DNA of 64,000 bases from Treponemataceae bacterium. Its GTDB lineage: Bacteria > Spirochaetota > Spirochaetia > Treponematales > Treponemataceae. A model generated the notes under the pieces. The model was not told the DNA's origin, did not search any database, and was given only the letters and a program-made list of their open reading frames with translations. Position numbers and translations under genes: made by a program. Positions 2,213-19,486 of this stretch are shown here, one piece after another (positions within the stretch are counted from its first letter, which is position 1; each line of letters opens with the position of its first letter). Location: assembly GCA_024402495.1 (NCBI GenBank), contig JAKSTR010000002.1, positions 16,708 to 80,707 of the forward strand. Direction: 5' to 3'.

Positions 2213-2346
2213 GCACAGTTCACAAACAGTATTTTTGACAATGCAAGGAAATAAACAGCCCGAATTGATGATAAAATAGTTTATGCTGAACAACTGAAAA
2301 TTTCACAAATGGTCGATAATAAAAAAGATACAATTTGGGGGCTTGC

Positions 2347-3786
2347 ATGAAAAAACAACATTTTCACCTTATCATTTGTTTTTCTTTTTTTATTTTTTGT
2401 ATTTTGCAAACAGCTTGCGGTCTTACGCCCCAGGAACAGCGTGAACGATTTATAGAACAGTGCAAATCTTATCTTGGAACGCCTTACAAATACGGCGGTA
2501 CAACCAAAAAAGGCATGGACTGTTCCGGTTTTATTTTTACTTCCGCCAAAGAATCTTTGGGTTTAAATTTGCCCCGCCGTTCCGAAGATTTGTACAACAG
2601 CCTGGAACATATTGAAAAAGGCGATTTGCAGCCCGGCGACCTTATATTTTTTAAGGCAACAGACCGCATAAACCATGCCGCGGTTTATTTGGGCGACAAT
2701 ACTTTTATTCATTCCGCCAGCGACGGTCCTAAAACCGGCGTTATAATTTCCAACCTTGACGAAAGTTACTGGAAGCAGACTTATGCAGGCTGTGCCCAGC
2801 TTTTGCCAAAAATGAGCGAACAGGAACTGGCAAGCCTTTTGAAAGGTGAAAAAAAAACAGCAGACGAAAATCCAGAGCCTGAAAAAGCAGAAACAGAAGA
2901 AATTCAGGTAGCAAAAACCGCAGAAAAAACAAATGCGCAGGCAAATACCCAAAAAGAAGCAGTTGAAACTGTACCGGATTCGCCGGTTGTTATGAAAGAA
3001 AACAAAACAGGTGGCGGCGGTACAAAGGCTTTGCGTATTGAACCGCGGCAGGAAAACGAAAATATGGAAGAAGTTGCCCAAGTTCAAAGCGCGCCAAAAG
3101 CCGAAGAACAGACTGCGCCGGTATCGCTGAAAAAAGCAGAAACCGCCGCCGTGCTGGAAGAAGAAGATGATGAAACTTTTACCGCCGTTGTTTTTGAAAA
3201 ATACAGCGAAAAAATAGAAGAATCGGCGGCTGAACAGACCGCGTTGCCGGCAGAACAGGTGCAGGCTTCAGAACCGGTTTTGGCAGAAAAAGCTGAAAAA
3301 TCTGCAAAAACGGCTGCGGAAGAAACAGAACCGGCAAAAGTAAACCTTGCCGACGCGTTGCCAATACCGGAAGCCGGGCAAAAAACCGCAAGTGCAGAAA
3401 ATGCTGAAAAATCTGCCGATATTGATGTGACCGTAAACGCAGCACCGGCACAAACTGCGCAAAACATTCAGAATGTTCAGCCTGCACAAACTGCTCCAGC
3501 CGAAGAACCCGTACAGATGGCAAGAACAGCTGCGCCGGTGCAAAATACTCAGGAATCGGAAAAAGTTTCCTATGCGCTGCCGGTTGCAGAACCCGTATCA
3601 ATGGAAAAATTTGAAGAACCTGCGCAGCCGGTACAAACCGCGCAGGCTTCAAAAACGGTTCAGGCAGCGCCGGTACCAGCTGCAAATAACGCCGCAGGCG
3701 CGGTCAACAGCCACGCACCGCAGCAAACCGTAGTTGCCCAGCCGCAGCTTAATGTAACTATTTCTGTAGAAGGTTTTATTTATTAG
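2347..3786 (+). CDS. NlpC/P60-family cell-wall endopeptidase lipoprotein with a long low-complexity tail
   Basis: Start taken as ATG 2347 (the track ORF begins at TTG 2335). Lipobox LQTAC. Catalytic core GMDCSGF ... HAAVYLG ... IHSAS. The C-terminal ~330 aa are E/A/K/P/Q/T-rich. Confidence 0.85.
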   Translation: MKKQHFHLIICFSFFIFCILQTACGLTPQEQRERFIEQCKSYLGTPYKYGGTTKKGMDCSGFIFTSAKESLGLNLPRRSEDLYNSLEHIEKGDLQPGDLIFFKATDRINHAAVYLGDNTFIHSASDGPKTGVIISNLDESYWKQTYAGCAQLLPKMSEQELASLLKGEKKTADENPEPEKAETEEIQVAKTAEKTNAQANTQKEAVETVPDSPVVMKENKTGGGGTKALRIEPRQENENMEEVAQVQSAPKAEEQTAPVSLKKAETAAVLEEEDDETFTAVVFEKYSEKIEESAAEQTALPAEQVQASEPVLAEKAEKSAKTAAEETEPAKVNLADALPIPEAGQKTASAENAEKSADIDVTVNAAPAQTAQNIQNVQPAQTAPAEEPVQMARTAAPVQNTQESEKVSYALPVAEPVSMEKFEEPAQPVQTAQASKTVQAAPVPAANNAAGAVNSHAPQQTVVAQPQLNVTISVEGFIY

Positions 3787-3787
3787 T

Positions 3788-4531
3788 ATGATTAAACTTA
3801 ACCGGGGTAAATACCCAAAATATTTCGTTCTTGCGGCTGTATTAGCCGGCGCTATTCTTTTCAGTTCTTGCAGCACATCGGTTGCACTTATTGCAGGTCA
3901 AAACAATTCCGGCGAAGTTTCCTTGCAGACCAAATTAAGCCCGTCGGTAATGTCGGTGGTAAGCGCATTAAGCGGTGCTTCTTCTACCGAAGCCCTGTTT
4001 GACAAAGACCAGATTGTTCAGTCGCTTAAAAAAACAGGCTATACCGTTTCCGGCGTGCGTTTTCCTGCGCGCAATACATTAACAATCAACACCCAGACGG
4101 CAAAATTAACCGACATGCTGCCTAATTCCAAAGACTTTGTAAGCCTTAAAAAAGACGGCAAAATTAACGATATGGTTATAAATCTTTCGCCTGCAAACAT
4201 AAAAAAGGCCGTTGACCTTATGCCGGAAGAAACCGCCTTGTATCTGGACCTTTTGTTTGCGCCGATTTTTACCGGCGAAGCAATGAGCGCAGACGAATAT
4301 ACCGAATTGATTGCAATGGCTTACGGCGATAACGTTGCCGCGGACTTGAAAAAATCAATTGTTACCATTCAGTTTGACGTGCCGGGGCAAATCGTTTCGG
4401 CAGAATTAACTAACAATGACAAAAATACAATAAGCATTGATGCCAAGTTTATAAAAATGTCTATGCCGCTGGTAGAAATGCTTACAAACTTAAAAGGCAA
4501 TGTTTGCCGCATAAGATGGACTGAAGAATAA
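3788..4531 (+). CDS. hypothetical lipoprotein
   Basis: 247-aa ORF with a signal peptide and lipobox LFSSC. It starts 1 nt after the previous stop. Confidence 0.75.
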   Translation: MIKLNRGKYPKYFVLAAVLAGAILFSSCSTSVALIAGQNNSGEVSLQTKLSPSVMSVVSALSGASSTEALFDKDQIVQSLKKTGYTVSGVRFPARNTLTINTQTAKLTDMLPNSKDFVSLKKDGKINDMVINLSPANIKKAVDLMPEETALYLDLLFAPIFTGEAMSADEYTELIAMAYGDNVAADLKKSIVTIQFDVPGQIVSAELTNNDKNTISIDAKFIKMSMPLVEMLTNLKGNVCRIRWTEE

Positions 4532-4764
4532 TGACAGAGCTGGAAAATGAACAGATAGCTGAACTTAACAGCCGAATGACGGAAATTGAAATAAAATTCA
4601 GCTATCTGGAAGATTTTTTGAACAAATTGCAGAACATTGCCGTAGAACACGACAAAACAATAGACCAGCTGAAAGCCGAAAACCTCATTTTGAAGCAGAA
4701 AGTGCGGGAACTGGTAGAAGCACAGGAAGGCGACATTCCAAACCGCCGTCCTCCGCATTATTAA
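4531..4764 (+). CDS. slyX: SlyX-family coiled-coil protein
   Basis: 77 aa with a heptad-like coiled coil. It ends in RRPPHY, like E. coli SlyX (...PPPHY). TAATG overlap with the upstream gene. Confidence 0.75.
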   Translation: MTELENEQIAELNSRMTEIEIKFSYLEDFLNKLQNIAVEHDKTIDQLKAENLILKQKVRELVEAQEGDIPNRRPPHY

Positions 4765-4782: not shown

Positions 4783-6072
4783 GTGTTTGCGCCGCATATA
4801 ATTACATTTAAAGATTCTGTTACAGAAATTCGTAAAGAACGTTTTGCCGATTCCGAATGTCAGGCTGTTCAAATGCCTGCAACTGTTAATTTAATTGGCG
4901 AACGCGCTTTTGCAAACTGTACGCAGCTTACCCATCTGCTTATTGGCGAAGGCGTAACTGTGATTGAACCTTATGCTTTTGCCGGCTGCACGGCTTTAAC
5001 GCAGGTAATCATTCCGGCAAATGTAATTGAAATTGGTGAAGGCGCTTTTGCAGGATGCTTAAACCTGCGCTACGTGTGCATTTTTGCCGATTTGCAGGTT
5101 TTGCCCAAATATCTTTTTAAGGACTGCCAGAATCTTTGCAAAATCGTTTTGCCGCAAAACCTTATCCGCATTGAATATCAGGCGCTGGCTGGCTGCAAAA
5201 GTCTGGCAAGCGTTAATTTAAGCGAAAGTGTTACCGAAATTGACACCGACGCCTTTGACCGCAGTACAAAAATTGTTACAAAATACGAAAAACCTTTGGT
5301 TCACGCTCACACCACAATAGAAAACGCGCCAGTCAAAAGCGACGTAGATATTCCGGCGTGTCTTCGCACCCAAAACCAGAACTATCATCCCCAGCCGCAA
5401 AATAATTTTGCAGGTACATCCGGTACTGACAATAATGTTCAGCTTTTTGCCAACAGCGGCACTTTTGCAAATTACAGGCAGGCAGAAAATTATGCAAGCG
5501 CACCGGAATATGCGCCAAGTGCAAAACCGCCGGTACAGAATAATTATGCGCCCCAAAACATGCAGAACCAGCTGTATGCGCAAAGCAGTTTTTTCGTTTC
5601 AAATGCAAACGCAGCTGCGGCACAAAACGAAGAAGATTTGGAAGTGCCGGCATATTTGCGCAAACCTTTGCCAAATACCAGTCTGCAAAAACCGGTTGGA
5701 CGCGGCATGGCGTTTTCTCCGGTCAATCAGCCGGTTATGCAAACCAGCCCAAACAGTTCCGGCAGCCAGCCCGGCAGCGATGACGATTTGCAGTACGAAA
5801 TTCCTGCGTGCTTGCGCCAAAAGCCTGAACAGAATTACCAGCCGCAGCAAAACCGGCAGCCGCATCCGGCTTTTACCCGGCAAAATCAGCCGTTACAAAA
5901 CCAGCAGGGCACCAGCTTTTTTGAAGCCGTAAAAAATTATTCCGGGGCTGCCGTTACCGATGTAACAGACCAGTTTTTAGGTACAGCTGCCACGCCAAAA
6001 AACGCAGCGCCTTCTTCCGCCGGCGACACCCTAAGCGACAAAGCCCAAAACGGCATAACCCTGAACTTTTAA
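4783..6072 (+). CDS. cytoplasmic BspA/LRR_5-type leucine-rich-repeat protein with a Q/N/P-rich tail carrying three FtsZ-C-terminal-peptide-like motifs
   Basis: GTG start with AAAGGA SD and no signal peptide. Repeats of the form IGERAFANCTQLTHLLI, IEPYAFAGCTALTQVII and IGEGAFAGCLNLRYVCI. Motifs at 5338-5367, 5629-5661 and 5779-5817. Confidence 0.8.
   Translation: MFAPHIITFKDSVTEIRKERFADSECQAVQMPATVNLIGERAFANCTQLTHLLIGEGVTVIEPYAFAGCTALTQVIIPANVIEIGEGAFAGCLNLRYVCIFADLQVLPKYLFKDCQNLCKIVLPQNLIRIEYQALAGCKSLASVNLSESVTEIDTDAFDRSTKIVTKYEKPLVHAHTTIENAPVKSDVDIPACLRTQNQNYHPQPQNNFAGTSGTDNNVQLFANSGTFANYRQAENYASAPEYAPSAKPPVQNNYAPQNMQNQLYAQSSFFVSNANAAAAQNEEDLEVPAYLRKPLPNTSLQKPVGRGMAFSPVNQPVMQTSPNSSGSQPGSDDDLQYEIPACLRQKPEQNYQPQQNRQPHPAFTRQNQPLQNQQGTSFFEAVKNYSGAAVTDVTDQFLGTAATPKNAAPSSAGDTLSDKAQNGITLNF
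5338..5817 (+). other. three copies of the peptide motif D-x-[DE]-[IV]-P-A-[CY]-L-R inside the LRR protein tail
   Basis: SDVDIPACLR (5338-5367), EEDLEVPAYLR (5629-5661), DDDLQYEIPACLR (5779-5817). Compare the E. coli FtsZ C-terminus DYLDIPAFLRKQ. Confidence 0.8.
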
Positions 6073-6091
6073 ATAGCAAAAACCCATAAAA

Positions 6092-6128
6092 AAAAGCCCA
6101 AAACCTTTTTGCAAGTTTTTGGGCTTTT
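6092..6128. terminator. bidirectional terminator between convergent genes
   Basis: 12-bp stem AAAAGCCCAAAA / TTTTGGGCTTTT with a 13-nt loop. The A/T runs are part of the stem and flanks. Confidence 0.7.
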
Positions 6129-6145
6129 TGCATATTTCTAAGTGG

Positions 6146-6610
6146 TTATGGATTTGGTGGGTTAAACATGTCGTCAAACTGTTGACCTGTTTTACCTACA
6201 ATTGTTGTGGCATTACATTTTTTCAAATCACCAAAACCTGTAACTGTCATTATGTCGCCGTTGATAGTACCAGTTAAAATGCCGCCTGTGCCGTCCATTG
6301 TTATTTTAACTTCATTGTCATTGGCTGTATATGTACCAGCTTTTACACCTGTATATTCATCTGTTATATAAAAATAGGTTGATTTATCAAATGTGAAAAC
6401 CAAATAAGATTTTCCTGATGTAAAATAAAGACCAGTGCAAACCAAAGCAGAAGGGTTGTTTAAATCGTCTTTATCAACCCAAACGCCGGCTGCATTGTCA
6501 ACAGTTGTTGTTGTGCTGTCTTTGCTGTCTCCGCCACCGCCGCCTTTACAGCTGGCAAAAAGCATTGCTAATGCTGCCAAAACACAAAAAATAATTACAT
6601 TTTTCTTCAT
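6146..6610 (-). CDS. small hypothetical lipoprotein
   Basis: 154 aa with a signal peptide, lipobox LFASC and a G5 linker. SD AGGAAA. Confidence 0.8.
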   Translation of the reverse strand: MKKNVIIFCVLAALAMLFASCKGGGGGDSKDSTTTTVDNAAGVWVDKDDLNNPSALVCTGLYFTSGKSYLVFTFDKSTYFYITDEYTGVKAGTYTANDNEVKITMDGTGGILTGTINGDIMTVTGFGDLKKCNATTIVGKTGQQFDDMFNPPNP

Positions 6611-7026: not shown

Positions 7027-10000
7027 TTGAATTTATCTAAAAAAGATAACCCGAAATTCAATTTTTCTAAAATAGCAAAAAAAGCACTTTCGCTTTTGCT
7101 ATGCATAACAAGCCTTGCAGCGTGTTCCAAAAATGCAAAGGCAAATGGCGTAAACAGCCAGCCCGGCGATTTTTACGTAATCAGCTGCGACCCGGCTGGA
7201 AAACTTCCTTCAGAAGTTCGGTTTCCTTCTATATATGTGCAGTTTTCTGAACCAGTAGTTGCACTTGAAAAACTTGGCGAACAAAGCGACAAGTCTGACG
7301 TTTTTTCAATTGAACCAAAAATTGACGGCGTTTTCAGATGGTATGGCACAAGCCTTCTGGCTTTTGAATGTGCCGATGCCGTTGTGCCGCAAATGGAATA
7401 CAAGGTAAAAGTTAACGGCAACCTGAAATCAATTAACGGTACCCAGTTAACGGGCGAAACCGAATATACTTTTACAACCGAAGAATTAAAAATTACAAAC
7501 TTTGTGCCCGGATATTCGGCACGCAAAGAAGAAAATACAATTTCAAGCGAAGATTATTACGATTATTATTATTCGTCTTACGGCAATTTGAACGATCTGG
7601 ATTTAACTTCTGCTGCGGATTTGGCTGTATTTTTCAATTACCCGGTAAATGCGTCGGTTACAGGTTCTTTTATTGAACTGCGCGATGAAACCGGCAAAGT
7701 TTACAAAACCGAAGCCAGCGCAATTGAAGGCGAAAACGCCCTGCTTGTAAAAGTTAAAGACACAATGCCGGAAAACACCGGTTTTCAGCTTGTGCTGAAA
7801 GAAGGCGCCTGTTCGGAAAAAGGCTTTTTAGGCAAAAGCGAAGAACAGATTAAAGAATTCCACACGTTAAAAACATTCACGTTTAATTATGCAGACAGCG
7901 ACCGGCGCAGTTACGGCAAGTACAGCAACCCGGTATTTTTATATTTCAGCCACCGCATAGACCCGAATGCGGCAGAATGGGTCAGCAAAAACGTAACGAC
8001 AAAGCCTTCAATGCCAGTCAGTGCCGAAAACGTAAGTATTTCGGGCAATTCGGTAATGATTCACAGTTTGCCTGTTAATTTTGAACAGACCTATACACTT
8101 TCGCTTGCAGCCGGCTTAAAAGATGCTTACGGTCGCGCCACCACATCTTCTGAAGAAATTGAAGTAACCGTGCCGAGTGCCGCAAGCATGGCAACTTTTA
8201 AAGATTACGGTCACGGCATTCTTGAAGCCCAGTTTGAACCGAAACTTGCATTTCAATACCAGAACATTCTGGACGGTTCTTATTACAGCGTAAATGGCGA
8301 AACCGTAAAATACGACGAAAGCAATGTACCTAAAAATACAAGGGTAACGGAAGTTGTAGACCTTGCGCCGTATTTGAAGAAAATTAAAGACCGCTATTTT
8401 GGTCACGTAAATTTTTCTGCAAATATTGTCGTTAAAGACAATTACGACCGCGACTATACGTATACCCACAATAACAGCCAGGTTATTCAGGTTACAAACC
8501 TAGGCGCAACCGTGCGTTACGCCTATAACAAGGCCGTTGTTATGGTTAACTATCTGGATACAGGCAAACCGGTTGCAAATGCAGATGTAGCCTTTCTGGT
8601 TGTTCCGGGCAACAAGAACAGCTGGATTGCTTCGATGGAAACAATCCTGAACGAAGTTTCCATGTTTGACAAAGATTACCGCGGCTACGATTTTACGCCG
8701 ATGGGAATTGCCAGAACCGACGCAAACGGTCTTGCCGTAATTGATTTTGCCGAAACTGAAAAATTTTCAACGCTGGCGGATAAACGAGGCGCACCGATTA
8801 CGCTGGGCGACATTATGGGCGATAACCGCCACTACGGCTATACGCCTGTCATTGAGGTTTCATGCGAAGGCGACCGTCTGGTATTCAACCCGGACATTAC
8901 CTATATGTGGTCTACCGGCGCAAATTATTGCCGCGACGCAACCCACGGCGACGCACAAATTACCAAAACATTCCTTTTTACAGACCGCGGCTTGTACAAA
9001 CCGGGCGAAAAACTTTCGTTCCGCGGAGTTGACCGCGACTTGAAGCTTAGCCAGTACAGTGCATACACCGGCGCTTATACTTTGACCGTAAGGGAAAGCC
9101 GCTGGCAGGGCAAGGAAATTTACAATACCAAAGGAACCTGTACCAAAAACGGAAGCTTCTGGGGCAGCATTCGTTTGCCGCAAGACCTTGAACCGGGCAG
9201 TTACGAAATTGTATACGAACGCGCCGGTACAAACGAGCGCATGTACGAATATTTTACGGTTGCATATTTTGAACGCCTGCGTTTTTCTGCCAGCGCCAGT
9301 ATTGCAGACCAGACCTACGTGCGCGGCGACCGTGTAGACGCAACCGTAAACGCCGAATATCTTGGCGGCGGCAGTTTGGGCGGCTGCAACTTTACCGCTT
9401 CGTGGTTCCGCGAACCAACTTATTTCCGCATCAGCAAACCCGAATTTGCAGAATGGCGCTTCGGTCCTGTTCAGGGTTACGACAACCGTTCGTTCCTTGG
9501 GCGCGAAACCGGCGTTTTGGGCAGCAACGGCAGCGGCAGCGTCAGCACAACCAGCGGCAGCGAACAGCTGAAAGGCATGGCGTACCAGTACCGTACCGAA
9601 ATGCGCGTAAGCGATTCTGCCGGGCAGGAAATTAGTGCCAGCGCAAGCACAGTCGTTCACCCGGCGGCTTTTTATATTGGTTTAAGCCCTGCAAAAAATC
9701 TTGCCGGTTTTGCGACCAAAGGCAAGGAACTTGACTTTGATTTCAAGCTTGTACAGCCAAACGGAAACGCTCCGCTGGACAACCAGCTGCCGGCAAAAAA
9801 GGCTGATAAAAAAATCAAGCTGGAACTTTTGCGCGAAAACTGGAAAATCGTTCAGCAGATGGGCATTGGCGGCACAATCAATACCCGCTACGTAAAAGAA
9901 ATGGTAAACGAAATTACCAGAGACATTGATTTGCAGAACGCGGGTTCATTCAATTTTACCGTGCCGAAAGGCGGTGCCTATATTCTTCGCCTTTCTACCA

Positions 10001-12975
10001 CAGACCGCAAAGGCAACGATGTTGTTACCGAACGGCGTTTTTATGCAAGCGGCAGCGAATGGCGCTATTTTGGCAACCAGAGCGAAGAAATTAAGCTTAT
10101 TTGCGACAAAGATGAATACGCCGAAGGCGATACCGCAAAAATCATGCTGCAAAGCCCTATTGAAAAGGGAACATATTTAATCACCGTAGAACGCGATTCT
10201 ATTATCAGTCAGGAAGTCCGTACTTTTGACCAGAGCGTAAGCATTATTGATTTGCCGGTTAAGGCAGAATATCTGCCGGTTGTTTATGTTACAGTTTCAA
10301 GCTTTTCGCTGCGCAGCGGTGAACCGGCTGAAGATTACGACAGCCCTGACCTTAACAAACCGAAAGGCTATTTTGGCGTTGCGCCGGTACACGTAAATAC
10401 CGAAGGCAAATCAATGGATCTGGCTATCAGCACCGACAAGCCTTCTTACAAGCCGGGCGAAAAAGCCACTGTTTCATTAAAAGTTTCACGCGGCGGCGTA
10501 CCGGTGGAAGGCGCTGAACTTTCGTTTATGGCGGTAGACCGCGGCGTAATTGACCTGATTGATTACCACGTTCCCGATCCGATGAAGTTTTTCTACAGCG
10601 AAAGCTGCTTCCCGCTGAGCTGTAACGGCGGCGACAGCCGTTCACTTTTGATTGACCCGGTACGCTATGCGGCTAAAAATCTTTTTGGCGGCGATGCAGA
10701 AAGCGACGATGACAAAATGAACGAGCGCAAAAACTTTGACCCGACTGCGATTTTTGAACCTTGCATCATAACCGACGCAAACGGTATTGCAAAAGCCGAA
10801 TTTAACTGGCCGGATACTTTGACGACATACCGCATGACCGCGTTTGGCGTTAAAGACGACCATTTTGCAGTTAAAGAAAGCGAAATCAATGTCGCAAACC
10901 CTATTTCGGTACGCGAAGTTTTGCCGCGGCGTTTGCGCGTTGGCGATATCAGCGAAGCCGGCGTTGTAATTTCTAACCTTGAAGCAAGTGCGCAGAACGT
11001 TACTGTTTCAATGGAAGTTTTTGAAGGCATCGAAAAATCCGGTCAGCCGGCGGAAGTAGACGGAATTGTTAAACAGCCGGGTTTTGCCCGCATGATTGGC
11101 AAAACTGAAGAAACTGTAAAAGTTGGCGCAAATACAACGCTTCCTGTAATGTTCCCGTTTGAAGCACAAAACGACGGTTTTATTACCGTTCAGTTTACGG
11201 TTAAATCAAGCCTTGTAAACGAACGCATATTGAAGCCTTTGCAGATTGACCGCCCGATTATTTACGAAACCGTTGTTACCACCGGCGAAACCGGCGATGA
11301 CAAGCAGGCTTTTGCAAAAGAACAGGTAAAACTTCCGCAGGTTTTTGATAAATCTTACGGAACTTTGTCGCTGACCCTGGATGCAACACGCCTTGGCGTT
11401 CTTAAAGAAGCCGTAAACTATTGTTTCAGATACCCATACGGCTGTCTGGAACAGCGCAGCAGTGCAATTTTGCCGCTTGTTCTTTTCAGCGATTACATCA
11501 AGGCGTTTGACCTTAACAGCGAAGTTAAGAACCCTAAAAAAGTAATTGAAAAGGAAATTAAGGACTGGGGAAAATATCAGAAATCAAGCGGCGCATTCCC
11601 GTACTGGCCAAGCGGCTATTACGAAAGCCTGCCTGTTACCCTGCGCATTGCAGAAATTGTAGGCATTGCCCAAAGCAAAGGCTATTCTACAAACGCAATC
11701 AACACGCGCAGTCTTTTTCAGTATATCGAAGCCCAGATTGACGCAGAACTTGCAAAAGAACATCCGAATACGGCAATGCTCGCCTATGCAAGCTATGTTT
11801 TAACCGGTTTTGAAAGCAAAAACCTGAAACAGCTTTATGCAGAATCTGAAGTAATAAAAGATGCCTTGACCATGGTAGGAAAGGCTGAAAAAGCTTCAAT
11901 CAGCGATATGTGTTTTGCGGCTTTGGCTTATAAAAAACTTAACAACAACGTAAAAGCCTTGGATTTGCTTAAACAGGTTCAGGGTTACTTTAAGCCGACA
12001 ACCCGCGGTCTTGATATTACCGACCCGGCAAGATGTTCTTACTGGTACTGGTTTGGCGGCAACAGCGACGCATATTCTGCGGCACTTAAAGCTTATTCCG
12101 TAATTAACCCGGAAAGCGACTATTTAGGCCGTCTGGTATTTGAACTTTTGCAGATTCAGAAAGCCAGCCGCGGATACTGGCGCAGTACCGCAAGCACCGC
12201 CCGCGTTCTGGACGGTTTTGCAACTTATATTGAAGCCCTGAACCTTGAAAAAACTGATTTTACGGCAGAAGCTTTGATTGCCGGTAAAAGCGTGGAAGTT
12301 AACAAGTTTAAGGGTCTTGGTGCAGAACCGGTTACCAAAACTTTTGCCTTTAACGACAATGCTTTTGACGGAATTGCGGAAAACACCGCTTTTGATGTTG
12401 AGTTCAGCAAAAAAGGCACGGGCAATTTGTTCTATACAATGGTTCTTAAATATCCGCTTTGGGCAAACGAAATGACAGCCCGCGACGAAGGTTTGTGTGT
12501 ATTTATGGAATACGTTGATATAGAAACAGGAAAAACCGTTGCCGCGGATAAGCTGGAAAGCGGAAAAACATACAAAGCCAAAGTTATGGTAAGTTCTACC
12601 AAAGACCGCACCTTTGTTGCCTTGCGCGCGCCAATTCCAGCCGGATGCGAAGTTTTGAATGCGGCGTTTGTTACCACCGGTACTTATTCAGACTACGCAG
12701 AAGAAACCAAAGAAAGCAGTGATGATTATTACGATGATTACTACTACTACGATGACGATTACGGTTATTCGTTCAACATGCTTTCTAACCAGACCATTTA
12801 CGACAACGAAGTTCAGTACTTCTGGGACGATTTCCCGCGCGGACGCCAGAGCGTAGACTTCCTGTTCCGTGCAGTGCGCAAAGGTACTTACCAGACACCA
12901 AGCGCAACAGTTGAATGTATGTACGAACCGGAAATCTTTGGACGGTCTGCCGGTAAAGTTTGGAAAGTTGAATAA
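7027..12975 (+). CDS. bacterial alpha-2-macroglobulin-family lipoprotein with thioester site
   Basis: 1982 aa. TTG start with SD GAGGAGGGG. Lipobox LAAC. Thioester motif GCLEQ at 11440-11454. Followed by pbpC. Confidence 0.9.
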   Translation: MNLSKKDNPKFNFSKIAKKALSLLLCITSLAACSKNAKANGVNSQPGDFYVISCDPAGKLPSEVRFPSIYVQFSEPVVALEKLGEQSDKSDVFSIEPKIDGVFRWYGTSLLAFECADAVVPQMEYKVKVNGNLKSINGTQLTGETEYTFTTEELKITNFVPGYSARKEENTISSEDYYDYYYSSYGNLNDLDLTSAADLAVFFNYPVNASVTGSFIELRDETGKVYKTEASAIEGENALLVKVKDTMPENTGFQLVLKEGACSEKGFLGKSEEQIKEFHTLKTFTFNYADSDRRSYGKYSNPVFLYFSHRIDPNAAEWVSKNVTTKPSMPVSAENVSISGNSVMIHSLPVNFEQTYTLSLAAGLKDAYGRATTSSEEIEVTVPSAASMATFKDYGHGILEAQFEPKLAFQYQNILDGSYYSVNGETVKYDESNVPKNTRVTEVVDLAPYLKKIKDRYFGHVNFSANIVVKDNYDRDYTYTHNNSQVIQVTNLGATVRYAYNKAVVMVNYLDTGKPVANADVAFLVVPGNKNSWIASMETILNEVSMFDKDYRGYDFTPMGIARTDANGLAVIDFAETEKFSTLADKRGAPITLGDIMGDNRHYGYTPVIEVSCEGDRLVFNPDITYMWSTGANYCRDATHGDAQITKTFLFTDRGLYKPGEKLSFRGVDRDLKLSQYSAYTGAYTLTVRESRWQGKEIYNTKGTCTKNGSFWGSIRLPQDLEPGSYEIVYERAGTNERMYEYFTVAYFERLRFSASASIADQTYVRGDRVDATVNAEYLGGGSLGGCNFTASWFREPTYFRISKPEFAEWRFGPVQGYDNRSFLGRETGVLGSNGSGSVSTTSGSEQLKGMAYQYRTEMRVSDSAGQEISASASTVVHPAAFYIGLSPAKNLAGFATKGKELDFDFKLVQPNGNAPLDNQLPAKKADKKIKLELLRENWKIVQQMGIGGTINTRYVKEMVNEITRDIDLQNAGSFNFTVPKGGAYILRLSTTDRKGNDVVTERRFYASGSEWRYFGNQSEEIKLICDKDEYAEGDTAKIMLQSPIEKGTYLITVERDSIISQEVRTFDQSVSIIDLPVKAEYLPVVYVTVSSFSLRSGEPAEDYDSPDLNKPKGYFGVAPVHVNTEGKSMDLAISTDKPSYKPGEKATVSLKVSRGGVPVEGAELSFMAVDRGVIDLIDYHVPDPMKFFYSESCFPLSCNGGDSRSLLIDPVRYAAKNLFGGDAESDDDKMNERKNFDPTAIFEPCIITDANGIAKAEFNWPDTLTTYRMTAFGVKDDHFAVKESEINVANPISVREVLPRRLRVGDISEAGVVISNLEASAQNVTVSMEVFEGIEKSGQPAEVDGIVKQPGFARMIGKTEETVKVGANTTLPVMFPFEAQNDGFITVQFTVKSSLVNERILKPLQIDRPIIYETVVTTGETGDDKQAFAKEQVKLPQVFDKSYGTLSLTLDATRLGVLKEAVNYCFRYPYGCLEQRSSAILPLVLFSDYIKAFDLNSEVKNPKKVIEKEIKDWGKYQKSSGAFPYWPSGYYESLPVTLRIAEIVGIAQSKGYSTNAINTRSLFQYIEAQIDAELAKEHPNTAMLAYASYVLTGFESKNLKQLYAESEVIKDALTMVGKAEKASISDMCFAALAYKKLNNNVKALDLLKQVQGYFKPTTRGLDITDPARCSYWYWFGGNSDAYSAALKAYSVINPESDYLGRLVFELLQIQKASRGYWRSTASTARVLDGFATYIEALNLEKTDFTAEALIAGKSVEVNKFKGLGAEPVTKTFAFNDNAFDGIAENTAFDVEFSKKGTGNLFYTMVLKYPLWANEMTARDEGLCVFMEYVDIETGKTVAADKLESGKTYKAKVMVSSTKDRTFVALRAPIPAGCEVLNAAFVTTGTYSDYAEETKESSDDYYDDYYYYDDDYGYSFNMLSNQTIYDNEVQYFWDDFPRGRQSVDFLFRAVRKGTYQTPSATVECMYEPEIFGRSAGKVWKVE

Positions 12976-13206: not shown

Positions 13207-15489
13207 TTGAAAAAATTATTTAATACCGCCAGAATGCCAGAAATCTTACAAAAAATTCCGCCTGTACCGGCTTTTTTTAGCAGAATATTAAAAATTATTT
13301 TTGTTCTTGCCGCAGTTTTTCTGGTATTTTGGCTAAGCCTTTTAATCATTCCTTTTAAGCCCCTTAACCGGTTTATAAACCGCCCGTGCAGCACCCGTTT
13401 TTACGACCGCAACGGAATTCTTCTGCAAATTAGCAGCGTGGACGACGGATTGCGCCGGGAATGGACGGATCTGGAAAAAATTCCCCAGTCTGTGCAGCAG
13501 GCATTTATTGAAGCCGAAGACAAAAACTTTTACCGCCATCACGGCGTTGACATTCTGGCAATTTTCAGGGCGCTTGGGCAAAATACCAGGGCACAAAGCC
13601 GGGTAAGCGGCGCTTCTACCATTACAATGCAGCTGGCGCGAATGGTTGTGCCCCGGCAGTCGGCAAATGTAACGCTTTGGCAAAAAATGAAGGAAACTTT
13701 TAACGCCCTGCGCATTGAAGCCAAATTGAGCAAAAAGCAGATTCTGGAACTTTATTTGAACAATGTGCCCTTTGGTTTTAGAACTGAAGGCGTTACAAGT
13801 GCGGCGCGTAATTTTTACGGCGTGCAGTTGCACCAGCTTTCTTTTGAACAGATTGAAACGCTGGCGCTTTTTCCGCGCCGACCTGCAACTTATATACAGA
13901 AAGTGCCCGGTGCCGCCGTATTTGAATACCCGAACAATGCGCCGCATTTTGTAAACTTTGTAAAAAATCTGTACGCCGGCAATTTGGGCGGCAATTTTCA
14001 GATAGATTTAACCGGTAAAAAAACTGGCGCAAATGCAAAAAAAGCAAATTATACCCGGCTTCCTCCGGATTTGTATCTTTCAATTGACCTGCCGCTAACC
14101 GAAGAATGCCGGAGCCGGCTTTTTCAGACCAGCCTGGATTACAAAACGGCGCGAATTAACGACGGCGCGGCATTTTTGATTGACAATATTACCGGCGAAA
14201 TTCTGGTCTGGTGCGGCGGTACAGATTTTGACCGCGCCGATAACGGTCAGGTTGACGGCGTTCTTGCCAGAAACCAGACCGGCAGTTCTACCAAGCCTTT
14301 TTTATACGCCGCGGCTTTGCAGAACGGCTTTTATCCGGCTTCCGTTTTGCCGGATGTACCGATGGATTTTGGCACGGATCAGGTTTATGTGCCGCAGAAT
14401 TTCAACAACCGCTTTAACGGTCCGCAGCTTTTCCGCACCTGCCTTGCTTCCAGCCTCAACATTCCGGCGGTTTTTTTGCTTTACCGTCTGGGCGTTGATC
14501 AGTATTGCCGGGTTTTGGACAGTCTGGGGCTTTTTTCTATTAAAAACCAGCGCGAAAATCTGGGCTTGTCTTTGGCGCTGGGGGCTGGCGAAGTTAGCCT
14601 TTACGAATTGGGCAGGGCGTTCAGCGTTTTTAGCCGCGACGGTACCGTGCCCAAATTAACGATTTTTGCCCAAAAGCCCGGCTACAAAACCGGCGTTTTA
14701 AGCGAAGTTTTTACCAAAGACACCAGCCGCATTGTCTGCAACATGCTTTCGGATTATGACGCCCGGGCGCTGGGTTTTGGTTTTTCCAAAATATTTGATA
14801 CGCCGTATCCGGCAATTTTCAAAACCGGCACGTCGAATCAGTTTCAGAATATTGTGGCGCTTGGCGCAACGCCCAGATATACCGCCGCGGTTTGGATGGG
14901 CAATTTAAGCGGCGAAACCGTTATCGGCGAAACGGGCAGTTCTATTCCGGCTAAAATCGTGCGTTTTTTGCTGGACAGCCTGCAAAAAAAAGGCGAAAAG
15001 CCCGAATTTATGCCGCCGGAACAGTTTGAAAAACGCCGTATCTGCGCTTTAAGCGGCATGGGCGCAGGCAAAAGCTGTCCGGCGGCTACAGCTGAATATG
15101 TAAGAAAAGGCGAAAAAATTGAAAAATGCAGCTGGCATTATATTGATGCAGGCGGCAAAGTGCAGGTTAAATACCCTAACGAATATCAGCGCTGGCTTGG
15201 CGGCAAGAACATGAACGGCGAACTTAAATTTGAAGGCCGTTTCAGGTTTTTGTATCCGCTGAACGGCGCGGTTTTTGTTTACGATTCTTCTTTAAGCCGG
15301 AACGAACAGCAGCTGCGCATCGATTTGCTTGGCGGCAATGAAGAAACGGCGGAATTGTTTTGCGACGGTGTTTCTATCGGTATAAAAAGCAGGCCGTTTT
15401 CGTGGTATTTGCCGCTTAATCCCGGCGTGCACCAGTTGCAGGCTTATTGCGGTACTGCCACCGACGCGATAACGATTACCATAAAATAG
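13207..15489 (+). CDS. pbpC: penicillin-binding protein 1C (bifunctional transglycosylase/transpeptidase)
   Basis: GT51 motif EDKNFYRHHGVD. Transpeptidase motifs SSTKP (SxxK) and KTGTS. TTG 13207 or ATG 13234 could be the start. Sits immediately downstream of the A2M gene. Confidence 0.88.
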   Translation: MKKLFNTARMPEILQKIPPVPAFFSRILKIIFVLAAVFLVFWLSLLIIPFKPLNRFINRPCSTRFYDRNGILLQISSVDDGLRREWTDLEKIPQSVQQAFIEAEDKNFYRHHGVDILAIFRALGQNTRAQSRVSGASTITMQLARMVVPRQSANVTLWQKMKETFNALRIEAKLSKKQILELYLNNVPFGFRTEGVTSAARNFYGVQLHQLSFEQIETLALFPRRPATYIQKVPGAAVFEYPNNAPHFVNFVKNLYAGNLGGNFQIDLTGKKTGANAKKANYTRLPPDLYLSIDLPLTEECRSRLFQTSLDYKTARINDGAAFLIDNITGEILVWCGGTDFDRADNGQVDGVLARNQTGSSTKPFLYAAALQNGFYPASVLPDVPMDFGTDQVYVPQNFNNRFNGPQLFRTCLASSLNIPAVFLLYRLGVDQYCRVLDSLGLFSIKNQRENLGLSLALGAGEVSLYELGRAFSVFSRDGTVPKLTIFAQKPGYKTGVLSEVFTKDTSRIVCNMLSDYDARALGFGFSKIFDTPYPAIFKTGTSNQFQNIVALGATPRYTAAVWMGNLSGETVIGETGSSIPAKIVRFLLDSLQKKGEKPEFMPPEQFEKRRICALSGMGAGKSCPAATAEYVRKGEKIEKCSWHYIDAGGKVQVKYPNEYQRWLGGKNMNGELKFEGRFRFLYPLNGAVFVYDSSLSRNEQQLRIDLLGGNEETAELFCDGVSIGIKSRPFSWYLPLNPGVHQLQAYCGTATDAITITIK

Positions 15490-15633: not shown

Positions 15634-16611
15634 TTACTGCTTTTTAGATTTTTTGCTGTAAAGCCAGCACAAAAACATGCCCAGCAGACTGGCGGCAATC
15701 ATGCCGAGGCACAGAATTTGCCCGGTAGAAATGTTAAAAACCGAAACATTAAAATAAATCGGCGAATCGGGCTGTGCCGCAATGCGGTAACCCAAATCGC
15801 TGTCCGGCTCTCTAAAATATTCAATTATAAAGCGGAAAAAACCGTAGCCGCCGGTATACAGACAGGCAAAAAAACCGTCAAAAGGTTTTTTGCGGCGCAA
15901 AAGCCACAGTATCAGCCACAATACAACGCCTTCAAAAAAAGCTTCGTACAGCTGGCTTGGGTGTCGCGGCAAATTTACCAGCGTCTGGTTTTCTGCAACT
16001 TTTATGCCGCAAACGTTTACAATCGTTTTCACCCAGTCCAGGCTGAGCGAATATTTTTCGGCATCCGGAAAAATCATTCCCCACGGCACGGTGGTAATTC
16101 TTCCGTAAAGTTCGCCGTTAAAAAAGTTGCCCAGCCGCCCAAAGGTAAAACCCAGCGGAATGGAAACGCACATTACGTCAATCCATTTAAGTGCCGGCTG
16201 TTTTTTTACAAAGCACCATAGCAGCATGCCGAACAAGCCGCCAATCCAGCCGCCGTGGTACGACATTCCGGCATAGCCCGTAAAATTACCGTATTCGTCA
16301 AAGGGCACAAAAATGCGCAGCGGATGCTGCCAGTAATAGAGGGTCGGGTCGTAAACGAGGGTGTAAAAAATGCGCGCGCCAAGCACCAGACAAATTATTC
16401 CGCACAAAAAAAAGCTGTAAATTTCGTCAGCCGCGGTTTCTTCGTCTTTAAAGGTAAGCGCGCCTTCTTTTACCTGCCTGCTGAAAACAAAATAGGCTGT
16501 ACCGAATGCAAAAACGTACATCAATCCGTACCAGCGCAAATGTTCCAAAAACGGCACACCGGGAAAAATCGACGGATTTATCCATGCTGGATAATTTATA
16601 AATAAAGGCAT
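15634..16611 (-). CDS. lgt: prolipoprotein diacylglyceryl transferase
   Basis: 325-aa polytopic membrane protein with the Lgt signature HPSQLYE. SD AAGGAA. Confidence 0.9.
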   Translation of the reverse strand: MPLFINYPAWINPSIFPGVPFLEHLRWYGLMYVFAFGTAYFVFSRQVKEGALTFKDEETAADEIYSFFLCGIICLVLGARIFYTLVYDPTLYYWQHPLRIFVPFDEYGNFTGYAGMSYHGGWIGGLFGMLLWCFVKKQPALKWIDVMCVSIPLGFTFGRLGNFFNGELYGRITTVPWGMIFPDAEKYSLSLDWVKTIVNVCGIKVAENQTLVNLPRHPSQLYEAFFEGVVLWLILWLLRRKKPFDGFFACLYTGGYGFFRFIIEYFREPDSDLGYRIAAQPDSPIYFNVSVFNISTGQILCLGMIAASLLGMFLCWLYSKKSKKQ

Positions 16612-16643: not shown

Positions 16644-17780
16644 TTAAAACCTGAAACCCTGTTCGCTGGCTTTTACAATCTTGCGTTTCAGCAGATTGTT
16701 TTCTTTTTTAAGCTGGGTAATTTCGTACTGCTGTGCCTTGATAACTTCTGCAACGTCGCCCATCGTTAAAGTACCAGTACCAATAAGGTCTTCAATATAG
16801 CTCATTTTGTTTTCAAAATCGGCAATTGCCTGTTCTTCGGCATTTGTAAAGCTTTCCTGGCTTGCAACAAGATAATCGTCAAAGGTCAAAGTTTCGCTTA
16901 CGCGCACGCGTTCTGCAATGCGGTAAATGCCCTGGGCAAGTACAGACTGCGGCTTGTAAACAATAACCGGCAGGCGCGAAGCCAGCGCAATGTCCTGCAC
17001 CATGTCGCGGCAAATTACGCCGATATGCTCAAGTTCCAGACCGAGGTATTCCTTGCAGGAACGGCGGATTTTCTGCGCTTTGTCAACGTCGGCAGGGTTG
17101 TCAATCATGTTAAGGACAAGGCGCGGACGGAATTTCTGCATGCGCCGGCGGAAAAGTGCCGTGCTTTCCGGGTCAACCTGATCCAGTGCGTCCAGAAGTT
17201 TCGGTATGTAAAGTTTCTGCATTGCCGAAGAATCGCCCTTAAGTTTTTCAAGATAGGCGTAAGCCCGGCTGTCTTTTTTGAAAGAATTGTACATCATGCG
17301 GAAAACCGCATTTTTCAGGAACAGATAGCCGTCCAGAATTGAAGTAACTGTCGGGGCTGTTACAAGAATTCCCTGCGGCGAAAGCAGGAAAAAGTCGAGG
17401 ATGCTTAAGTGCGTACCGGCACCAAGGTCAATAAGCAGAAAGTCGCAGTTGGTTGCCTGCAAATGTTTTATAAGCATATTTTTCTGCGCTGCTTTTATGG
17501 TAGACATTCCCGGAATTTCTGAATCTCCGGGGATAAACGAAAGATTTGCGTAATCTGTCGGTACGATTATTTCTTCAAATTTAGAATTGCCGCTTAAAAA
17601 AGTGCCCAACCCGGCTTTTGGCGACTGGTGACCAAGAACAAGGTGCAGGTTAGAAGCGCCCAAGTCCATGTCTACAAGCACAACTTTTTTACCAGACTGA
17701 GCAAGTGCAATGGCAAGGTTTGCCGAAACGAGACTTTTGCCTACGCCGCCTTTGCCGCTTGCAATAGGAATGATTTGCAT
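16644..17780 (-). CDS. MinD/ParA/FlhG-superfamily P-loop ATPase with a C-terminal coiled-coil extension
   Basis: Deviant Walker A SGKGGVGKS at the N-terminus. 378 aa. No min or flh partner genes are nearby. Confidence 0.8.
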   Translation of the reverse strand: MQIIPIASGKGGVGKSLVSANLAIALAQSGKKVVLVDMDLGASNLHLVLGHQSPKAGLGTFLSGNSKFEEIIVPTDYANLSFIPGDSEIPGMSTIKAAQKNMLIKHLQATNCDFLLIDLGAGTHLSILDFFLLSPQGILVTAPTVTSILDGYLFLKNAVFRMMYNSFKKDSRAYAYLEKLKGDSSAMQKLYIPKLLDALDQVDPESTALFRRRMQKFRPRLVLNMIDNPADVDKAQKIRRSCKEYLGLELEHIGVICRDMVQDIALASRLPVIVYKPQSVLAQGIYRIAERVRVSETLTFDDYLVASQESFTNAEEQAIADFENKMSYIEDLIGTGTLTMGDVAEVIKAQQYEITQLKKENNLLKRKIVKASEQGFRF

Positions 17781-17941: not shown

Positions 17942-19486
17942 ATGAAATTTTCACATTTTTTTCTAAAATATTCAGCAAAAAGCACACTTTCACTTTTTAT
18001 TGCTGTTTTATTAGTATTTTCTTCTTGTGCCCAGGCAGAAGCCCAGAAAGAAAGCGCTTCTACCCAGCTTAAGGAAGAAAAACCACAGCTTTCGCAGGCT
18101 GAACGTTCTTTATTGACACGCCAGTACACTGACATGATTCGCAGTGTTTTTATGTTTGTTGAACAGAATTACGTTGACGAAGTTGACCCGACGGTTTTGT
18201 ACGAAGGCGCAATGAAAGGCATGCTCGATTCTTTGGGCGACCAGTATACCGTTTATCTGGATAAATCTCAGATGCGTGATTTGAACGATACTACTACCGG
18301 CAATTTCGGCGGGGTAGGTCTTTCCATAACAAAACCGAATGTTTCTACACCGGAAAAACCGGCTTATGTAGAAGTTGCTTCTCCAATCGAAGGCACTCCG
18401 GGCTGGCGTGCCGGCATTCAGGCAGGAGACCTGATTATTTCAATTGACGACACGAACACCGCAGATATTACGATGGAAGAAGTTCTTTCAAAATTGCGCG
18501 GCACCCCGAACACCGATGTAAAGGTTGTTATTCGCCGCGGAAAAAACATGGAATTTCCGGTTGTTCTTACCCGCGCAATCATCGAAGTTCCTTCCGTAAA
18601 ATGGTGCATGATTGACGACATCGGCTACCTGCGCATTACGGAATTTGCCGCAAATACGCCGGAACGCGTTCAGCAGGCTTTAAATAGTTTTGAAGAAAGC
18701 AATTACAAATCTATGATTATAGATTTGCGCAGCAACCCCGGCGGCTTGATTAACAGCGTCGTAGAAGTTGCAGACAAATTCATTTCAAGCGGAACGATTG
18801 TTTCTACAAAAAGCCGCATTCAGTCGGAAAACAGAGTGTTCTCGGCAAAAAGCAACAGTACCTGCGTGCCCAAAAACATGCCGGTTATCGTTCTTATTAA
18901 CCGTGGCTCGGCAAGTGCTTCAGAAATCCTTTCGGGTGCGCTTAAAGATTATCACCTTGCATATCTTGTAGGCGAAAAAACTTACGGCAAAGGGCTTGTT
19001 CAGCAGGTTATTCCGCTTAATTTGAACGACGACGGCTTTAAGTTTACAACTTCGCGCTATTATACGCCGAGCGGTGCAAACATCAACAAAATCGGCATTC
19101 CGCCGGACCGCGAAGTTCTGTATCCGGTTTTAAGCGAAGACGAAGAAAAAGCTTATATTGATTTGCTTAATTCGGGCGAAATTGAAAAATATGCGGAAGA
19201 CCACCCGGATATGACTTTGGCAGATGCCGAAGCTTTTGCTAAAACTTTGGGCAAAACATACAAGCTGGAAGACCGTGTTCTCCGCAAGCTGGTTCGCAAC
19301 CAGTATTACCGCAAGCATACGGAACCTCTGTATGATCTGGATTACGACATCCAGCTGAACGAGGCTATAAGAATTATCCGCAAGGAAAATTTCAACAGCC
19401 TGATGAAGAAAACCAAAACCATTATTGAATTGCAGGCTGAAGCAGAAAAAAAGGCAGCAGCTGAAGAAAAAACGAGCAAAAACTGA
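17942..19486 (+). CDS. S41-family carboxy-terminal processing protease (lipoprotein)
   Basis: Lipobox VFSSC and a PDZ region. Catalytic motifs GSASASEI and TYGKG. Confidence 0.88.
   Translation: MKFSHFFLKYSAKSTLSLFIAVLLVFSSCAQAEAQKESASTQLKEEKPQLSQAERSLLTRQYTDMIRSVFMFVEQNYVDEVDPTVLYEGAMKGMLDSLGDQYTVYLDKSQMRDLNDTTTGNFGGVGLSITKPNVSTPEKPAYVEVASPIEGTPGWRAGIQAGDLIISIDDTNTADITMEEVLSKLRGTPNTDVKVVIRRGKNMEFPVVLTRAIIEVPSVKWCMIDDIGYLRITEFAANTPERVQQALNSFEESNYKSMIIDLRSNPGGLINSVVEVADKFISSGTIVSTKSRIQSENRVFSAKSNSTCVPKNMPVIVLINRGSASASEILSGALKDYHLAYLVGEKTYGKGLVQQVIPLNLNDDGFKFTTSRYYTPSGANINKIGIPPDREVLYPVLSEDEEKAYIDLLNSGEIEKYAEDHPDMTLADAEAFAKTLGKTYKLEDRVLRKLVRNQYYRKHTEPLYDLDYDIQLNEAIRIIRKENFNSLMKKTKTIIELQAEAEKKAAAEEKTSKN

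Follow-up and report, generated by a model that had tools for sequence, protein, structure and literature searches.

A predicted cytoplasmic leucine-rich repeat protein of an uncultured Treponemataceae lineage carries three motifs resembling the FtsZ docking peptide in its disordered tail

In a stretch of 64,000 nucleotides from a Treponemataceae bacterium (GenBank assembly GCA_024402495.1, contig JAKSTR010000002.1, positions 16,708 to 80,707; hereafter the window), the last gene of a four-gene operon encodes a leucine-rich repeat (LRR) protein, whose long disordered tail bears three motifs similar to the C-terminal peptide (CTP) of the cell division protein FtsZ. The gene, the tail and the three motifs are confirmed. 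We propose, with a probability of about 0.55, that this protein mimics the FtsZ tail in trivalent form and that its motifs engage FtsA or another CTP receptor. In bacterial cytokinesis the FtsZ CTP serves as the central docking hub, and it is a drug-target interface.

The tail peptides (in brief DVDIPACLRTQ, EDLEVPAYLRKP and YEIPACLRQK; full forms in Table 1) share the consensus acidic-x-[IV]-P-A-[C/Y]-L-R-polar and are spaced by about 98 and 52 residues. They were scored with a matrix of 112 distinct spirochaete FtsZ CTPs, Treponemataceae included, on which the real CTPs reach 19.1–37.3 bits (median 30.1). Motif 2 scored 29.0 bits and motif 1 scored 21.9 bits, both within the range of FtsZ, and motif 3 scored 11.5 bits. 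All three exceeded the best control (10.5 bits in about 200,000 residues) and were the top three matrix sites of the window. The preliminary description of this DNA, made from the letters alone, had pointed out the same three motifs; its start positions were correct, while its end positions (5367, 5661 and 5817) are those of the Arg codon and leave out the last 6 nt of the peptides given there. The LRR repeats of the same protein gave at most 1.7 bits, and shuffled tails equalled the score of the weakest motif in 0.065% of trials. The relaxed pattern [IVL]P[ATSV][FYCW][LMI][RK] occurs three times in the 262-aa tail versus three other times in all six frames of the window. One of these others, ..ERVPAYLRQIP* at 18648-18665 on the minus strand, is a chance match in a non-coding frame, antisense within the S41 protease gene. 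An earlier matrix of other spirochaete FtsZs, Treponema excluded, gave 27.3 bits for motif 2 and poor scores for the Cys-containing motifs 1 and 3; it penalised Cys and gave way to the present matrix, in which the Treponemataceae FtsZs are included.

The likeness to FtsZ had been drawn in the preliminary description from the peptides of Escherichia coli and Bacillus subtilis, which have Phe in place of the Cys or Tyr. It proved to be closer than that comparison showed, since Treponemataceae FtsZs carry the variants IPACLRT, IPACVRS and IPAYLRK. The Phe of the docking peptide was called "fully conserved" for the FtsZs of model organisms and pathogens (PMC9939409). The broader spirochaete FtsZ set follows D-[DE]-L-x-[IV]-P-[AT]-x-[LIM]-R; the residue at the Phe position is V, F, Y, I or A, and in none of its 47 CTPs is it Cys. 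Among the 112 distinct spirochaete CTPs, Cys occupies this position in 20, all of them from Treponemataceae. The tails of such FtsZ proteins read ..KDDIEIPACLRTNRISLDND in a large group including T. maltophilum and ..EDLEIPACVRSNRINLNDD in T. lecithinolyticum (shorter form ..EDLEIPACVRSN..), and further Cys-type tails are ..GLEVPACVRSNRINLDSD, ..LETPACLRKAAQ and ..FTTPTCLRNK. Tyr-type tails are ..IKIPAYLRKIQLGE of T. brennaborense (..IPAYLRK..) and ..NTPAYLRNRG. The Cys-type FtsZ proteins comprise P0245, P0308, P0310-P0331, P0338-P0350, P0293, P0266 and others in our collection (loci L006, L007, L128 and L130). In the Treponema loci with a Cys-type CTP that were retrieved, ftsA lies immediately upstream of ftsZ (4/4). 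Our literature search found no report on Cys in the docking peptide of Treponemataceae FtsZ.

Motif 1 (KSDVDIPACLRT) is identical to the FtsZ peptide of the T. maltophilum group (KDDIEIPACLRT) at 9 of 12 positions, and the FtsZ comparators of motif 2 are ..DDLGVPAYLRMKQ (Spirochaeta lutea), ..IKIPAYLRKIQ (T. brennaborense) and ..NTPAYLRNRG. Thus, Cys and Tyr in the tail motifs appear to be the FtsZ dialect of the lineage itself, because the Treponemataceae FtsZs share these variants. The Cys common to the tail and FtsZ is a lineage-specific signature, which neither chance nor a generic binding grammar is expected to give. Moreover, the match spans 9–12 residues and takes in the K-x-D flank as well as the T/Q that follows Arg, which speaks against a generic grammar.

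Homology search recovered five full-length orthologue clusters (100, 98, 96, 91 and 77% identity) on more than 20 independent contigs from NCBI, ENA and Logan. The cores of all three motifs are invariant in 5/5 clusters, while the linkers vary with indels; a lack of motif conservation among orthologues, which the preliminary description had named as a refutation, was thus not seen. In comparison with the codons of the orthologous locus L001, the core of motif 1 has four synonymous changes, motif 2, which is entirely invariant, has five and the core of motif 3 has two, namely 11 synonymous and no non-synonymous changes in the combined cores. The Ser186 preceding the core of motif 1 is Asn in the L001 protein (P0005). 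By contrast, the whole tail has 73 non-synonymous and 59 synonymous changes with 11 gapped codons, and the identity to L001 is 95% in the LRR part and 71% in the tail. One protein is identical between the two genomes, and their GroEL, Lgt, S41 protease and ParA-like ATPase each share a 90% cluster. Because the two genomes are so close, the tail identity of 71% points to fast-evolving linkers around frozen islands. Frozen islands in fast-evolving disordered linkers are the usual signature of short linear motifs. It is evident that the motifs are under purifying selection.

A sequence resembling a decayed fourth copy, HPAFTRQ, is kept in 4/5 orthologue clusters and replaced in P0005, and L001 has an additional partial copy, ..EIPACLRQTKAPACLPMQ.., directly after motif 3. 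The sequences suggest that the motif copies are under continuing gain and loss. Motifs 1 and 3 are also alike beyond the core (5350-5409 and 5800-5859; IPACLR..QNYxPQ..N), with 8/20 matches ungapped, about 11/19 by eye with one gap and 50% identity in DNA. This likeness is compatible with an old internal duplication, though it is not significant given the Q/N/P-rich composition.

A metagenome scan for [DE]x[DE][IVM]PAC.[RS] gave at least 120 matches, which are scattered single chance matches (ferredoxin-like CDRCPDLEIPACVSSCP and others), one match per locus; none of the matches listed bears the FtsZ signature. As a side observation, D-L-[DE]-[IV]-P-A-C-V-[SR] recurs in ferredoxin-like RCDRCPDLEIPACVSSCPT.. 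of unrelated metagenomic proteins (loci L023, L090, L099, L106 and L114). Lone occurrences of the core pattern are uninformative, because they are common in huge databases. On the sequences compared, three copies within 262 residues cannot be an accident of database scale. The case for the likeness to FtsZ therefore rests jointly on the number of copies, the similar flanks, the lineage-specific Cys and purifying selection.

With regard to the protein itself, the preliminary description held it to be cytoplasmic, with LRR_5 repeats followed by a disordered Q/N/P-rich tail, and the present data agree. The Pfam LRR_5 profile (PF13306) matched aa 48-164 with 124.1 bits (cut-off 27.7 bits; E 4e-36). 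The AlphaFold2 (AF2) model shows a regular solenoid with eight evenly spaced short strands at aa 5-167 (predicted local distance difference test score, pLDDT, 76-94), and Foldseek of this head retrieved 4FS7, 4GT6 and TpLRR of T. pallidum (6MLX) at E 1e-6 to 1e-7. The tail, with pLDDT below 50, consists of 12% A, 11.5% Q, 11% N and 10% P. No hydrophobic window of 19 residues was found in the whole protein, and signal peptide, lipobox and membrane segment are all absent, so that it is predicted to be cytoplasmic. There is also no room for a signal peptide, because the first LRR strand begins at residue 6. An in-frame TAA at 4762 closes the reading frame on its upstream side. The ribosome-binding site AAAGGA lies 8–13 nt 5' of the GTG, and both the Shine-Dalgarno sequence and the GTG start are kept in the orthologous loci L001, L004 and L005. 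The SlyX stop codon (TAA, 4762-4764) and the LRR start (GTG, 4783) are in the same frame in the window, six codons apart. This shared frame looks incidental, with no sign of read-through, because the frames differ in L001.

The LRR protein with this tail is, in the databases searched, limited to one uncultured Treponemataceae lineage. When the back-translated tail alignment was run against 185,579 species-representative genomes, only the sister metagenome-assembled genome (MAG) was found, and an exhaustive HMMER search of 1.84 billion representative proteins with the tail profile found only its own cluster. Beyond the clade, the best identity in the LRR part is 34–43%, and both the tail and the motif are absent from all 115 other LRR_5 homologues. 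No named species falls into the same 90% GroEL cluster. Pfam and NCBIfam gave only LRR matches for this protein, those of NCBIfam to LRR adhesins being weak, and no match to the tubulin/FtsZ GTPase domain (PF00091/PF12327). Nor does it have the export signal typical of the characterised LRR_5 members. Thus no described family combines an LRR_5 head with a CTP-bearing tail, as the preliminary description had supposed. Our literature searches on peptide strings, CTP-like motifs, mimics and Treponema FtsZ or LRR proteins found nothing relevant, and no non-FtsZ protein with copies of the CTP was found to be described.

How could such a protein work? The contacts of the FtsZ peptide are individually weak, and avidity comes from the many subunits per filament. 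The LRR domain of BspA type is a protein-binding module. One chain with three hooks on flexible linkers of about 50–100 residues would act like a short FtsZ oligomer. It may bind neighbouring FtsA subunits on the membrane, or another CTP receptor of Treponema, in competition with or alongside FtsZ filaments. As a decoy, it would tune or block the anchoring of the Z-ring; as an adaptor, it would land on FtsA, so that the LRR domain with its ligand reaches the division site. Sequence cannot decide between the decoy and the adaptor. As far as sequence reaches, the data support the interpretation of the preliminary description, which had suggested a multivalent mimic able to titrate or scaffold FtsZ-binding partners. 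The motifs stand in a predicted disordered linker of a protein without signal peptide or transmembrane segment, a setting like that in FtsZ. From these sequence features we infer that FtsA or another CTP receptor is bound and that division may be affected. The conserved and variable parts of the FtsZ C-terminus (CTC plus CTV) serve as a hub for FtsA and, in other phyla, also for ZipA, SepF, SlmA, ZapD and MinC (PMC9939409).

The very C-terminus of the LRR protein may add to the mimicry. In Treponemataceae, 47 of 81 distinct FtsZ tails (set P0241-P0401) have the pattern (R/P/G)-I-(N/S/T)-L-(G/D/T)-x1-3-COOH after the docking peptide, which was found in 3/115 LRR controls and 3/88 of the broader spirochaete FtsZs. 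The C-terminus of the LRR protein, whose ..GITLNF box is invariant, was compared with this terminal box post hoc. A second mimicry, of the terminal box that is specific to Treponema FtsZ, is conceivable here; the C-terminus fits the β-signal of outer-membrane proteins equally well and is ambiguous.

Several points weigh against a mimic of the FtsZ tail. The score of motif 3 (11.5 bits) is below the range of real FtsZ, though above every control. The tail contains at least five further invariant islands (NVQLFANSGTFANYRQxENY, LQKPVGRGMAF, SFFExVKNY, DVTDQFLGT and the C-terminal box), none of which has a counterpart in FtsZ; CTP mimicry therefore cannot be the sole role of the tail. The terminal ..QNGITLNF also fits what we take to be the outer-membrane β-signal, polar-x-G-x-x-hydrophobic-x-F. 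The characterised LRR_5 proteins (BspA, LrrA and TpLRR) are exported. The protein must be dispensable for Treponema generally, because it is restricted to one narrow uncultured lineage. Finally, the FtsZs that the motifs match come from related Treponema species. The FtsZ signature GGGTG[ST]G is absent from all six frames of the window, and the host's FtsZ was not among 240 FtsZ homologues traced, none of which came from the carriers of the LRR gene SRR17543907, ERZ1767598 and GCA_045599185.1. FtsZ P0269 was considered as the cognate, because its accession shares the MCQ2 prefix of P0001, but the number is about 390,000 off and it very probably belongs to another MAG. Outside the peptide, the best alignment between the tail and FtsZ linkers covers 34 residues of low complexity at 50%, its E of 0.006 comes from a very small database, and homology to these linkers is not convincing.

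With these points in mind, other explanations should be considered. The motifs may be genuine short linear motifs that bind another hub, such as a protease adaptor, a chaperone or SlyX, and their likeness to FtsZ would then reflect a shared simple binding grammar (acidic run, Pro, small hydrophobic helix, Arg) or old descent from an ftsZ 3'-end, without competition at present. The further invariant islands, the modest score of motif 3 and the single occurrences of the metagenome pattern in many unrelated proteins are in line with this. On the other hand, the match of 9–12 residues including flanks, the reproduction of the rare lineage-restricted Cys and the three copies per 262 residues, which are no accident of database scale, speak against it, and we consider it unlikely, though it is the strongest of the alternatives.

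Somewhat less likely still is that, like other treponemal LRR proteins, this BspA-like protein is exported to the surface or periplasm, in which case the repeated motif serves an extracellular role, for instance adhesion or anchoring, and the likeness to FtsZ is irrelevant. Its nearest structural neighbours are surface or periplasmic LRR proteins including TpLRR, the NCBIfam matches, though weak, are to LRR adhesins, the neighbouring genes encode envelope proteins, and the terminal QNGITLNF presumably fits a β-signal. This contrasts with the absence of any signal peptide, lipobox or hydrophobic segment, with the LRR fold that starts from residue 6 and with the TAA that blocks upstream extension before a conserved Shine-Dalgarno sequence and start. 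The lineage-specific Cys motif of FtsZ type would also be left unexplained.

It is improbable, in our estimation, that the FtsZ CTP is bound by the LRR domain itself and that the tail motifs are pseudo-ligands of this domain, auto-inhibitory or self-associating, so that the protein would bind FtsZ and not FtsA. Short peptides are common ligands of concave LRR faces, regulation by tethering a receptor domain to copies of its ligand is a known design, and both the LRR domain and the motifs are strongly conserved here. However, AF2 docks none of the motifs on the LRR domain (tail pLDDT 25–33; alignment five sequences deep), the motif occurs in none of the 115 LRR_5 homologues, and to our knowledge no LRR_5 protein binds FtsZ. 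That the motifs are a functionless chance product or duplication relic of the low-complexity tail or of decayed LRR_5 repeats ("IPxxV") is suggested by the weak extended similarity of motifs 1 and 3 (IPACLR..QNYxPQ) and by IPANV and LPQNL in the repeats, but it is largely refuted by conservation, as the motifs change only synonymously while their flanks diverge with indels, and by the low scores of LRR repeats and shuffled tails, so that we give it hardly any weight.

A mimic of the FtsZ tail can be placed beside known systems as follows. In the C-terminal tail of Treponema FtsZ (..D-[IL]-E-[IV]-P-A-C-[LV]-R-[TS]-N-R-I-[NS]-L..), as in the LRR protein, a disordered linker presents acidic-x-[IV]-P-A-[C/Y]-L-R, and the C-terminus of the latter may carry an I-[NST]-L box as well. 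Unlike FtsZ, the LRR protein has an LRR domain as its head and no tubulin/GTPase domain (no PF00091, no GGGTGTG), and cannot polymerise as FtsZ does; its peptide is internal and present in three copies, whereas FtsZ has it once at the C-terminus, and its linkers are rich in Q/N/P/A, whereas those of Treponema FtsZ are rich in S/P/A. Its N-terminal 167 aa are like BspA-type LRR_5 proteins (Tannerella BspA, T. denticola LrrA and T. pallidum TpLRR) in profile and predicted fold, though the characterised members are exported and this protein has no export signal. The endogenous and phage division regulators MinC, SlmA, SulA, MciZ and lambda Kil share the proposed arena, namely the assembly or anchoring of the Z-ring via the FtsZ-tail hub. 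Those proteins bind FtsZ, whereas the LRR protein would imitate its tail and bind its partners. No kinship in sequence or domains to any of these regulators, or to the anti-phage systems of PADLOC, was found with Pfam, NCBIfam and PADLOC. For MinC and SlmA, binding to the C-terminal peptide of FtsZ was reported (PMC9939409). The principle, and only the principle, may be compared with multivalent short-linear-motif decoys of viral and pathogen effectors in eukaryotes, in which an unrelated protein likewise bears several hub-binding peptides within a disordered region; here, on the other hand, the mimic and the mimicked protein would come from the same bacterium.

The genetic context was as the preliminary description had reported: the LRR gene closes a tightly packed string of NlpC/P60, lipoprotein and SlyX genes, with spacings of +1 nt (NlpC/P60-lipoprotein), -1 nt (lipoprotein-SlyX, an overlap) and +18 nt (SlyX-LRR). 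The NlpC/P60 protein gave NCBIfam matches to murein endopeptidases, and its sole hydrophobic segment is N-terminal with a ..LQTAC lipobox. Its aa ~160-483 form a low-complexity extension of about 320 residues rich in A/E/Q/P/T/K without domain match; both the first and the last genes of the operon thus encode long disordered tails. The second gene, labelled "hypothetical protein MJ196_00750" at NCBI, had no Pfam match. The four-gene order is repeated in L001, the only other lineage with the LRR gene, and on short contigs of other samples; the second gene is syntenic in L001, L004 and L005, and L001 has the NlpC/P60 gene at the corresponding position. Synteny in more distant treponemes was sought by a metagenome scan with the second-gene lipoprotein, which found nothing. 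The terminator, found by direct folding, was missed by a generic terminator scan since its loop exceeds 8 nt, and it is common to the operon and a convergent lipoprotein gene (6146-6610, minus strand). The operon offers no physical bridge across the membrane, because none of its products (two lipoproteins and two soluble proteins) spans it. A functional tie of the mimic to the NlpC/P60 hydrolase is a speculation drawn from operon structure. The neighbourhood is rich in envelope genes, since the α-2-macroglobulin/PBP1C-like pair, Lgt, the S41 protease and others lie downstream, and the ParA/MinD-like ATPase encoded there could be relevant to the placement of the division site. Rfam and PADLOC gave no matches in this analysis.

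Table 1. Positions of the features in the window (numbered from its first nucleotide; aa, amino acids of the encoded protein)
Feature	Position	Strand	Remarks
NlpC/P60 lipoprotein, first operon gene	2335..3786	+	483 aa; Pfam NLPC_P60 at aa 48-152, E 1e-28
Lipoprotein of unknown family, second gene	3788..4531	+	247 aa; ..LFSSC lipobox; N-terminal signal only
SlyX-family coiled-coil protein, third gene	4531..4764	+	77 aa; Pfam SlyX, E 7e-16; predicted cytoplasmic, without hydrophobic segment
Shine-Dalgarno sequence AAAGGAAA	4768..4775	+	for the GTG at 4783; sequence read directly
LRR gene (GenBank protein MCQ2593770.1)	4783..6072	+	429 aa; GTG start; LRR_5 head and disordered tail
BspA-type LRR_5 domain	4783..5283	+	aa 1-167; about 7 repeats; without signal peptide
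Disordered tail	5284..6069	+	aa 168-429 (262 aa); AF2 pLDDT <50 throughout (25-33)
CTP-like motif 1, SDVDIPACLRTQ	5338..5373	+	aa 186-197; core DVDIPACLRTQ, aa 187-197
CTP-like motif 2, EEDLEVPAYLRKP	5629..5667	+	aa 283-295
CTP-like motif 3, DDDLQYEIPACLRQK	5779..5823	+	aa 333-347; core LQYEIPACLRQ
Possible decayed fourth copy, HPAFTRQ	5863..5883	+	aa 361-367; negative matrix score
Invariant C-terminal box, ..DTLSxKAQNGITLNF-COOH	6025..6069	+	last 10 residues the same in 5/5 orthologue clusters
Intrinsic terminator (A-tract/GC stem/U-tract hairpin)	6091..6134	+	-17.3 kcal/mol, z -2.87; conserved in L005
Bacterial α-2-macroglobulin	7027-12975		1982 aa; downstream envelope cluster
PBP1C-like transglycosylase/transpeptidase	13207-15489		paired with α-2-macroglobulin
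Lgt	15634-16611		
ParA/MinD/MipZ-like P-loop ATPase	16644-17780		378 aa
CtpA/CtpB-like S41 protease	17942-19486		
Open reading frame, adjacent to the next	24549-25550	+	333 aa; no Pfam match at E 1e-5
Open reading frame	25552-27360	+	602 aa; no Pfam match at E 1e-5

Finally, the known regulators all bind FtsZ or its peptide and, as far as we know, none is an imitator of the peptide. The LRR protein may be the first natural non-FtsZ protein with several copies of the FtsZ docking peptide of its own lineage, which would occupy FtsA or another CTP receptor and either throttle the anchoring of the Z-ring or deliver cargo bound to the LRR domain. This wider proposal is tentative, a little short of an even chance, and would define a new class of cell-division regulators acting by endogenous short-linear-motif mimicry. 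The Phe-to-Cys replacement in many Treponema FtsZ docking peptides implies that the FtsA pocket has changed its shape or that the contact is redox-sensitive. If the proposal is true, bacteria regulate the FtsZ-FtsA interface through decoy competition, and the LRR protein would offer an evolved, avidity-tuned design of an inhibitor or adaptor and an entry to the poorly understood division of spirochaetes.

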